This document shows positions 13,637-14,374 of a DNA stretch of 64,000 nucleotides, in pieces. Origin of the DNA: a virus. Lineage: Duplodnaviria > Heunggongvirae > Uroviricota > Caudoviricetes. The notes beneath the pieces were generated by a model. The model was not told the origin of the DNA. It searched no databases and saw only the letters and a program-made list of their open reading frames with translations. Position 1 is the stretch's first letter, and each line of letters starts with the position of its first letter. The position numbers and the translations under genes are program-made. The DNA lies in the IMG/VR virus record IMGVR_UViG_3300023371_000071; one strand, 5' to 3'.

Positions 13637-13672
13637 GCCCCGTTAGCTCAGTCGGTAGAGCATGCGGCTGTT

Positions 13673-14140
13673 TACCTGACCTCACTTACTCTTTATGAAA
13701 ATAAACATGAATAGTAAACAGTTAGGAAACATTACTGAACTTGAAACGATGTTGGCATTTCTTAAACTTGGTTATAATGTTCTTACTCCATATGGAGATT
13801 GTGAGCGTTATGACTTCGTGGTAGATATTGGCAATAAGTTTATAAGAGTTCAAAGTAAAACATCTCACTCAACAGATGATGGAGCATCATTCTCATTTAG
13901 TGGTAGAAGTTGTAATCGCAAAGATGGGAAAATTGTACACCATCAATACACAGCGGATGAAATTGATTACTTCGCAACAACTTTTAATGGAACGACCTAT
14001 TTGGTTCCAGTAGAAGAGTGCGGAGCGGATAAAAGACTCCGTATTCTTCCAGCCAAAAACGGTCAAACCCGAGGAATTACTTGGGCGAAAGATTATGAAT
14101 TGGAGGAAGTAGTAAAGAGTTGGTGAGCTGATGTGTAAGC
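13673..14140 (+). other. intron of tRNA-Asn (essentially ORF only)
   Basis: sequence between anticodon nt 36 and 37; only ~22 nt 5' and ~14 nt 3' of the ORF. Confidence 0.6.
13695..14126 (+). CDS. intron-encoded PD-(D/E)XK-like nuclease (putative homing endonuclease); paralog of 23775..24218
   Basis: 143 aa; motif ERYDFVVD...RVQSKT read as a PD-(D/E)XK-like signature; paralog sits in the same intron position of tRNA-Thr. Confidence 0.55.
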   Translation: MKINMNSKQLGNITELETMLAFLKLGYNVLTPYGDCERYDFVVDIGNKFIRVQSKTSHSTDDGASFSFSGRSCNRKDGKIVHHQYTADEIDYFATTFNGTTYLVPVEECGADKRLRILPAKNGQTRGITWAKDYELEEVVKSW

Positions 14141-14374
14141 AACCGCAGTGTCGTAGGTTCGAGTCCTACACGGGGCGCCAGCACCTCAATGGCCCATGTT
14201 GCCTCGGGTCAGAGAGGCGAAGTATTCAAACCGCTAACATGGATTCTGGCGTGCTAAACTACCACCGGCGCTCTAATTGCAATCCTCCGTACCCAATACG
14301 ATACTGTACAGAGAGCGATATGTGGCTTAGTGGAAAGCGGTATATAAGAAAGCAAAGTAAGCACTCCCGCATTT

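Follow-up and report, generated by a model that had tools for sequence, protein, structure and literature searches.

Endonuclease-bearing inserts that split phage tRNA genes between positions 36 and 37 fit no described intron class

In the DNA analysed here (a stretch of 64,000 nucleotides from a virus of the Caudoviricetes, IMG/VR record IMGVR_UViG_3300023371_000071, hereafter the window), a tRNA-Asn(GUU) gene is interrupted directly after its anticodon by an insert that is taken up almost entirely by a single ORF. The locus is composed of the following features:

13637–13672, + strand: exon 1 of tRNA-Asn(GUU), positions 1–36, its last bases being the anticodon GUU (sequence, cloverleaf search and intron-less alleles)
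13673–14140, + strand: insert of 468 nt between tRNA positions 36 and 37 (sequence, cloverleaf search and indel alleles)
13695–14126, + strand: ORF of 143 aa within the insert, PD-(D/E)XK homing endonuclease of the I-Ssp6803I family by similarity to PF11645, PDB 2OST and phrog_5018
14141–14180, + strand: exon 2 of tRNA-Asn, positions 37–76, with the CCA encoded (sequence, cloverleaf search and uninterrupted genes)

Exon 1 (13637–13672) has the letters GCCCCGT TA GCTC AGTCGGTA GAGC A TGCGG CU GUU and exon 2 (14141–14180) the letters AA CCGCA GUGUC GUAGG UUCGAGU CCUAC ACGGGGC G CCA. In the cloverleaf search the joined exons form a canonical cloverleaf that has a CUGUUAA loop and scores 17 of 17 stem pairs, and uninterrupted tRNA-Asn genes from other viral contigs (L041–L045) are identical to them from the D arm to the T arm; uninterrupted tRNA-Asn genes elsewhere read ...GGCTGTTAACCGC... 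ARAGORN with the -i option slides both junctions by one base and reports Asp(GUC), with junctions after U and after G: this is contradicted by the tRNA set of the window and by the intron-less alleles, and because the latter read GTTAA, Asn split at 36/37 is the correct reading. The original prediction of a tRNA-Asn(GUU) split at this site is thus confirmed by the uninterrupted alleles, by the stem pairs and by the Schiekvirus annotation described below. Using ARAGORN with introns off, 33 tRNAs were found in the 64-kb window, representing all amino acids except Asn, and tRNA-Thr(UGU) of this phage is likewise present solely as a split gene. A disrupted pseudogene had been considered in case an intact tRNA-Asn should exist elsewhere in the genome; within the window there is none, and the other Asn-like gene (8289–8403) is itself interrupted. 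The GC content of the insert is 33–40%, against about 50% in the flanks.

The 22 nt and 14 nt that had been counted outside the 143-aa ORF proved correct for the ORF at 13695–14126, while the start that is kept among relatives is the ATG at 13707 (MNSK...); with this start, 34 nt would precede the ORF. The translated ORF matches the Pfam family PF11645 (PDDEXK_5) with an E-value of 4.3e-30 over 137 of 138 profile positions, its best match in the PDB is the homing endonuclease I-Ssp6803I (2OST, E 1.7e-7), and the motifs E...PYGD...YD...QxK are conserved across 28 homologues: at the sequence level, the suggestion that this PD-(D/E)XK protein could be a homing endonuclease is therefore borne out, with I-Ssp6803I as its family. 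The family is abundant, with 680 protein clusters (90% identity) at E<=1e-10, nearly all of them metagenomic. I-Ssp6803I is reported (Bonocora and Shub 2001) to cleave either side of the anticodon triplet, with 3-nt 3′ overhangs as the product; on that account, I-Ssp6803I-like cutting would place the top-strand cut at 36/37, which is the insertion site here. By this analogy, the ORF protein is expected to cleave intron-less tRNA genes at the anticodon.

A second member of the same kind is present in the window:

23714–24264, + strand: split tRNA-Thr(UGU), with exon 1 at 23714–23749, an intron of 475 nt at 23750–24224 and exon 2 at 24225–24264; split at 36/37
23775–24218, + strand: ORF of 147 aa within the Thr intron, PDDEXK_5 (PF11645, E 1.9e-31), with 25 nt and 6 nt outside the ORF

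Altogether, related inserts were identified at no fewer than 45 loci (34 and 9 IMG/VR loci, Enterococcus phage EFP01 and one MAG contig); the phage tRNA genes concerned are those for Asn, Thr, Lys, Ile and Gln, and the site is 36/37 in every case. All 34 of the 34 IMG/VR relatives of the Asn ORF with readable flanks lie inside a tRNA split at this position, mostly Asn(GUU), then Lys(UUU), Ile(GAU), Gln(UUG) and one with the anticodon UUA; the relatives of the Thr member are found in tRNA-Thr(UGU) at 36/37 in nine of nine cases. L016 also contains an 830-nt Gln intron, in which the ORF is extended by a zinc-ribbon tail, and some copies are damaged: C33 in L012, a duplication in L017 and a mismatched exon 1 in L030. 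Additional "intron" calls made by ARAGORN in L027, L032 and L034 turned out to be fusions of adjacent tRNAs. A 16-mer scan of genome contigs, for which the query was too short, returned 120 matches that were almost all due to chance; the one real match (L091) is a Bacillota MAG contig carrying a phage-like tRNA array, and all examples are located on phage-like contigs. Every copy retains an intact ORF: no ORF-less derivative was found among the loci studied, and a pattern scan of IMG/VR gave six chance matches in coding DNA. The view that I-Ssp6803I would be the sole precedent for a one-off element cannot be upheld, given a large family that occupies several isoacceptors and has a second copy in the same window. 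A literature search found no description of such tRNA inserts.

Comparison of occupied and empty alleles shows that the insert is mobile, with presence and absence alleles whose boundaries at the target are exact. L023 and L045, which are collinear phage contigs of the same sample, differ by exactly a 463-nt insert between GTT and AA. Enterococcus phage EFP01 encodes a homologue of the ORF with 59% amino-acid identity at the same site of an unannotated tRNA-Asn, and when this locus is artificially spliced it aligns in one piece, at 97–98% identity, with the annotated tRNA-Asn of 33 other Enterococcus Schiekvirus genomes; the insert is hence present in 1 of 34 Schiekvirus genomes, and EFP01 is without any other tRNA-Asn. 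Furthermore, near-identical introns occur in tRNA-Asn alleles with different, internally compensated stems (L009 and L010). Homing at the DNA level is well supported by these alleles. Free-standing relatives adjoin tRNA genes, often tRNA-Asn, in unrelated viruses (haloarchaeal virus HSTV-4, Bacillus phage BCP78, Vibrio phage River4, Pectobacterium phage My1, Kuttervirus and Streptomyces phages). A split tRNA was searched for around the PDDEXK_5 genes of Kuttervirus, My1, Streptomyces phages, HSTV-4, River4, BCP78 and LR756508 and none was found; the intron form probably descends from such free-standing genes.

At the RNA level, the two ends of the insert pair with each other and with the anticodon:

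13670–13675, + strand: 5′ strand of helix alpha, formed by the anticodon G34 U35 U36 and intron nt 1–3 (UAC), partner of 14135–14140; contains the 5′ splice site
14135–14140, + strand: 3′ strand of helix alpha, the last six intron nt GUAAGC, of which the final three are the partners of the anticodon; the 3′ splice site comes immediately after
13676–13680, + strand: 5′ strand of an internal loop, CUGAC, with a D-box-like CUGA; 19 of 29 loci, Asn and Lys types; assigned by eye
14128–14134, + strand: 3′ strand of the internal loop, CUGAUGU, with a C-box-like UGAUG; proposed sheared G6-A and A7-G pairs, then U-U, then C/U-G
13681–13694, + strand: 5′ strand of helix beta, CUCAC...CUCUUU, pairing with the ORF end and closing the ORF hairpin; abuts the first ATG
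14114–14127, + strand: 3′ strand of helix beta, AAAGAG UUG GUGAG; includes the TGA stop at 14124–14126

Pairing in helix alpha was seen at all loci by anchored pairing. Over 28 distinct junctions, 96.4% of the cells are paired and all six pairs have changed on both sides, against 35–45% of cells paired in slid controls; the anticodon stem reaches the same 96.4% over these junctions, so that stem and helix alpha together show double changes in 11 of 11 pairs, and none of 500 shuffles matched the observed pairing or covariation score. The terminal triplet of the intron tracks the anticodon throughout (AGC with GUU, AAA with UUU, AUC with GAU, CAA with UUG, AUA or ACA with UGU, and UAA with UUA). 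As this includes U35-G wobbles, which are G-U pairs, the pairing appears to be selected at the level of RNA from the + strand. We also considered that the triplet complementary to the anticodon might have arisen at the DNA level: a target-site duplication would yield a direct repeat and hairpin P-nucleotides would yield a different sequence, with the G-U pairs again favouring RNA selection.

RNAfold adds a U33-A37 pair, such that the anticodon stem and helix alpha, with a C32/A38 mismatch between them, become one nearly continuous helix; in this model both splice sites lie inside the helix, 3 bp apart across the minor groove and with a 3′ stagger. The internal loop, YUGAC opposite CUGAUG(U), is found at 19 of 29 loci (Asn and Lys types), and its register is supported by sequences of the L023 type, in which one extra 5′ base pairs with U-7; the Thr, Ile and Gln clades are without the loop and keep the long helix. 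A box C/D kink-turn has a 3-nt bulge on one strand, beside the G-A pairs, while in this loop the 3′ strand has two such nucleotides (CU) and the 5′ strand has one (C), and because the clean 3-nt bulge is missing we term it kink-turn-like only. Mini-constructs from 12 loci all folded into the same architecture in RNAfold, and compensatory differences between loci were noted by eye in helix beta. The covariation shows that the anticodon stem is prolonged by an almost unbroken helix, which in many members passes through the kink-turn-like loop, and that this leads to a long hairpin with the ORF at its far end.

On balance we think it probable, if only by a little, that these elements are mobile endonuclease cassettes whose RNA is excised by proteins acting on the anticodon-paired helix and whose exons are then ligated, the splicing part being what we infer. 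The PD-(D/E)XK enzyme would cut an intron-less tRNA gene at the anticodon, and repair would insert a copy of the cassette precisely at 36/37; in the transcript, the anticodon and the first intron bases would pair with the last intron bases and display the ORF on a long hairpin, protein enzymes would recognise the helix and remove the insert, and the nicked anticodon loop would be resealed by an RNA ligase, for example the phage Rnl in the window or RtcB in EFP01. The helix is the sole RNA feature common to all clades, and thus structure-specific cleavage by protein followed by ligation is favoured. Excision is further favoured by the tRNA complement: Asn is the sole amino acid for which the window holds no intact tRNA, Thr(UGU) likewise exists only in split form, and in EFP01 no second tRNA-Asn could stand in.

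Candidate enzymes for the ligation step were found in the window:

36881–38323, + strand: candidate exon ligase, ATP-dependent RNA ligase of the Rnl type (PF09414) with an N-terminal PHA02142 OB domain; putative link to the intron
33543–34388: RlaP, in one RNA-repair cluster with the ligase
34388–35197 and 40099–40944: metallophosphoesterases, same cluster

The ligase that had been predicted for this phage is indeed present (PF09414, 36881–38323), but its N-terminal domain matches the PHA02142 OB-fold family only, rather than a tRNA-binding family as had been proposed. EFP01 encodes RtcB, the Rnl family of the window is absent from Enterococcus phages, and scans for close relatives overlap with the list of introns in one contig only. 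Rnl requires 3′-OH and 5′-phosphate ends, while RtcB requires a 3′-phosphate or cyclic phosphate and a 5′-OH: the opposite end requirements of the ligases in the window and in EFP01 mean that no single pathway is implied. As to the nuclease, cleavage of the two strands of duplex RNA with a 3-nt 3′ stagger is not known for any bacterial or phage endonuclease. The stagger produced by RNase III and Mini-III is 2 nt and not 3, which speaks against either as the sole nuclease, since the product would have an 8-nt loop or be without U36.

The main rival, which we regard as possible though rather unlikely, is that the insert is never spliced: a selfish endonuclease gene would occupy dispensable phage tRNA genes and use the tRNA as a scaffold, with the tRNA itself being lost. 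The cloverleaf would then afford processing by RNase P and RNase Z from the tRNA-array transcript as well as protection of the ends, and the helix would stabilise the chimeric mRNA; such a helix also suits a scaffold design, as in engineered tRNA-scaffold RNAs. Several observations agree with this and count against protein-dependent splicing. If host enzymes alone were sufficient for excision, ORF-less derivatives would be expected, and yet the ORF is intact in all copies and the search for ORF-less relics found none. The contexts are phage-only, where tRNAs are accessory and dispensable; occurrence in one of the 34 Schiekvirus genomes is what would be expected of a costly driver; and a few copies are damaged, namely L012 (C33), L017 (duplication) and L030 (mismatched exon 1). 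Homing also keeps entering fresh, intact alleles, and therefore the intact exons are explicable without selection: they could be a mere sign of recent homing into healthy alleles. However, a scaffold helix could be formed from intron bases alone, whereas the intron's 3′ end has been re-tuned to six anticodons right up to the junction; the tRNA set of the window phage is complete only if Asn and Thr(UGU), present as split genes alone, are counted; and endonuclease genes inside functional genes are as a rule nearly always tied to a splicing element.

It is also conceivable, although we hold it to be unlikely, that the homing endonuclease doubles as the splicing endonuclease, which would make these bacteriophage inserts a third class of tRNA intron, with exons sealed by the phage tRNA-repair ligase. 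The anticodon stem together with the helix between anticodon and terminal triplet would then reproduce in RNA the left half and centre of the DNA target, and the splice sites would correspond to the DNA cut positions of the I-Ssp6803I type, flanking the anticodon triplet with a 3-nt 3′ stagger. An endonuclease that is also needed for splicing would explain the absence of ORF-less copies. The RNA helix does not imitate the DNA target in full: the match is limited to the left half and the centre, and intron nt 1–7 with their partners are unlike the palindromic half-site.

Self-splicing, either by a highly reduced group I intron or by a new ribozyme that lies largely within the ORF and possibly uses the CUGAUGU/CUGAC loop, appears improbable. 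In its favour, the Asn and Lys types have a conserved loop, outside the coding sequence, on the intron side of each splice site, and I-Ssp6803I itself is encoded in a group I intron of 655 nt, in which a 150-aa ORF is accompanied by a ribozyme of about 200 nt (PMC1995217); PF11645-bearing group I introns are also found in tRNA-Arg(UCU) (PMC13011429). Against it, the last base of the intron is C (Asn, Ile) or A (Lys, Thr, Gln and UUA types) and never G in 28 of 28 distinct junctions, the sole register ending in G being the Asp(GUC) reading that the intron-less alleles contradict. The 5′ exon ends in G36 in the Gln(UUG) members and in A36 in L026, where a group I intron requires U, and throughout the family the final bases of this exon pair with the intron's 3′ end rather than with a 5′ guide sequence. 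The group I covariance model RF00028 gave no match at E<=10 across 13300–14500, while as a positive control it detected the tRNA-Leu(UAA) intron of the window (15574–15791) with 47.4 bits and an E-value of 4e-11. Only 31–36 nt of RNA lie outside the ORF (22 and 14 for Asn, 25 and 6 for Thr), compared with about 180 nt or more for group I introns, and the fraction of synonymous differences is even at 0.24–0.48 along the ORF with no long depressed stretch, which is a weak test. The earlier estimate that too little non-coding RNA remains for a group I core thus stands, and a group I intron was rejected on these combined grounds. The Thr, Ile and Gln clades, moreover, share the architecture and yet lack the conserved loop, and both splice sites lie in a perfect duplex, unlike in the small self-cleaving ribozymes known to us; a hammerhead, as suggested by CUGAUG, was dismissed because the loop is a two-way junction from which the helix II/GAAA arrangement is missing. 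As a separate observation, the group I intron in the window's tRNA-Leu(UAA) is inserted at 34/35 and ends in G.

A tRNA intron of the archaeal or eukaryal type, in which a bulge-helix-bulge (BHB) is cut by an EndA-like endonuclease and the exons are joined by RtcB, is very improbable. Pairing between intron and anticodon does occur, as it does in pre-tRNAs of archaea and yeast, EFP01 does encode RtcB, and endonuclease-bearing BHB introns exist in archaea (PMC3984707). The bulge-helix-bulge-like signal that had been proposed was nevertheless not recovered in a scripted test for two 3-nt bulges and a 4-bp helix, which found 0 of 4 central pairs for Asn and 2 of 4 for Thr at the true junctions; the site is 36/37 and not 37/38, both sites are base-paired, and the hosts are bacterial (Enterococcus, Bacillota). 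No EndA-family match was found among 30 ORFs of the window (64 kb of phage) scanned against Pfam. Bacteria are not known to possess EndA. Finally, a chance resemblance or a decayed pseudogene without biology of its own can hardly be entertained in view of the exact intron-less alleles, over 45 independent loci that share one architecture, strong covariation and an endonuclease that is intact and conserved.

Protein-dependent excision, the reading that we favour, can be set against known systems. One of these is the I-Ssp6803I intron in tRNA-fMet of Synechocystis, which shares with the phage insert the PF11645/2OST family, a target in the anticodon loop, insertion beside the anticodon triplet and the logic of homing; it is however located at 33/34, after U33, and ends in G, while the insert described here is located at 36/37, ends in C or A and shows no group I signal; the I-Ssp6803I intron resides in a cyanobacterial chromosome, the present insert in phages. 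Archaeal BHB introns with homing endonucleases (in rRNA and tRNA of Crenarchaeota) are alike in combining an endonuclease with a minimal RNA signal, in having no ribozyme and in pairing with the anticodon region, and their excision and ligation by proteins is what we presume for the phage insert too. They differ in that the phage insert has no BHB, places its splice sites 3 bp apart in a continuous duplex, encodes a PD-(D/E)XK and not a LAGLIDADG enzyme and resides in viruses of bacteria, for which no splicing endonuclease is known. Free-standing endonucleases, namely T4 SegB (PMC2330249) and the PDDEXK_5 genes beside tRNA-Asn in HSTV-4, BCP78 and River4, share the protein family and the neighbourhood of tRNA arrays, but sit between tRNA genes, whereas the present insert lies within the anticodon loop and its ends pair with the anticodon. 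Like the phage insert, the intervening sequences of bacterial 23S rRNA are carried on a long helix of their own ends. These are excised by RNase III and the rRNA fragments are not religated; a tRNA nicked in its anticodon loop is inactive, and hence ligation would be required here, unlike in 23S rRNA. That a homing-endonuclease gene may split a gene whose function survives is exemplified by nrdA/mobE of phage Aeh1.

The introns of bacteria and phages are regarded as self-splicing (group I or group II), with protein-spliced tRNA introns held to be archaeal and eukaryal. According to a 2014 review, all phage introns known by then were in protein-coding genes, despite the many phage tRNA genes (PMC3984707). 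The family described here is common, uses at least six anticodons and belongs to neither of the two known classes of tRNA intron; it fits no described intron class. If the inserts are spliced, an RNA-cutting and -joining pathway new to bacteria or phages would exist, which would give phage RNA ligases and RtcB a natural role beyond repair, and restoration of the tRNA, if it takes place, would rely on a mechanism for which bacteria and phages offer no described example. If they are never spliced, endonuclease genes could drive through phage populations at the cost of tRNA genes, which they would destroy and turn into RNA scaffolds. In either case, current annotation of tRNAs in phage genomes misses split tRNA genes, and a cultured system for testing these readings exists in Enterococcus faecium with EFP01 and its intron-less sister phages.

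The window holds a second tRNA gene divided by an endonuclease-only insert, a tRNA-Thr(UGU) split between positions 36 and 37 by a member of the same family as the insert in tRNA-Asn, together with several other unusual tRNA genes and a group of RNA-repair-type genes:

Features of the window and of one compared locus (L016)
7745-7870, 7877-7994 and 8289-8403: three tRNA genes whose anticodon arm is interrupted on its 5' side by an insert of 43-47 nt
near 11431, 11862, 12224, 13079 and 15434: copies of a repeat of ~29 nt
15539-15844: tRNA-Leu(UAA) with a genuine group I intron (15574-15791, 218 nt, at 34/35)
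19471-19561: tRNA(CUA) with a long variable arm (labelled Pyl by ARAGORN)
23714-24264: tRNA-Thr(UGU) split at 36/37 by the endonuclease-only insert
28687-40944: RNA-repair-type gene cluster
42968-44425: Band-7/flotillin gene accompanying this cluster
L016 511-1420: tRNA-Gln(UUG) split at 36/37 by an insert of 830 nt

In the tRNA-Thr insert only 6 nt separate the stop codon of the ORF from the 3' junction, so that the coding sequence itself forms part of the helix in which the anticodon and the first intron bases pair with the last intron bases. Both intron ORFs of the window also carry a Shine-Dalgarno-like GGAGGAAGUAG near their 3' ends (14102-14112 and 24197-24207), at positions that are not homologous at the protein level; the same sequence occurs in many relatives and may represent an RNA element, or may simply reflect Glu-Glu-Val codons. 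A short way 3' of the split tRNA-Thr lies a partial tRNA match (24359-24423; 45.9 bits) that covers model positions 5-66 and whose acceptor stem is shortened.

Among the compared loci, the insert of L016 encodes a protein of 209 aa in which the PDDEXK_5 domain is followed by a C-terminal Cys4 zinc-ribbon-like tail. The anticodon in L026 (1450-1960) is UUA, ochre-suppressor-like on a Lys-like tRNA body, and the terminal triplet of the intron, UAA, serves at once as ORF stop codon and as anticodon partner. In two further loci, L024 and L030 (introns at about 1460-1940), in-frame stops occur at shared conserved sites (VL*PYG and P*xEC) of otherwise intact endonuclease ORFs, a pattern that suggests an alternative genetic code in these phages rather than dead genes. 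In the window, the tRNA with anticodon CUA is probably an amber suppressor, and the phage may thus recode TAG. The conserved repeat of ~29 nt, which is found between tRNA genes at about 11430-15465 and also in L044 and at the start of L043, may act as a promoter, terminator or processing signal.

The insert in tRNA-Leu(UAA) is a group I intron inside a phage tRNA gene: its last base is G and it scores 47.4 bits with RF00028, the Rfam group I intron model, slightly below the gathering score of 50. According to a 2014 review (PMC3984707), no group I introns were known in phage tRNAs. For the three inserts of 43-47 nt a group I intron was ruled out, as they are too small, and these inserts show neither an ORF nor a bulge-helix-bulge motif. 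The three genes reach 41-47 bits when scored against the Rfam tRNA model. They comprise a second tRNA-Asn(GUU), perfect once 43 nt between positions 28 and 29 are removed, a Gly(GCC)-like gene, and a Tyr(GUA) gene whose insert has a GGTCT direct repeat at its ends. Such inserts may hint at a general system for removing tRNA inserts in this phage or its host. A small ORF lying between these genes (8019-8287) appears, judged by eye only, to be RelE/ParE-type toxin-like.

The RNA-repair-type cluster comprises a DUF2828/DUF7788 gene (in L229 and L230 the same gene adjoins the intron-bearing tRNA array), an RlaP nucleotidyltransferase, two metallophosphoesterases, an HNH endonuclease, an RNA ligase and an 823-aa major-vault-protein-like protein. 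Enterococcus phage EFP01 (L168) likewise encodes a Band-7 protein, as well as an unannotated RtcB tRNA-splicing-type ligase (EFP01_162, 40218-41462; PF01139, E 3e-59); its record annotates no tRNA genes, the split tRNA-Asn included.

Free-standing PDDEXK_5 genes were found near intact tRNA-Asn genes or directly 3' of them:

L210 587-1123: HSTV-4
L212 546-1093: BCP78
L211 516-1084: River4

Since these genes belong to one archaeal virus and to unrelated bacteriophages, their placement suggests that the endonuclease family has been linked to tRNA-Asn targets since long ago.
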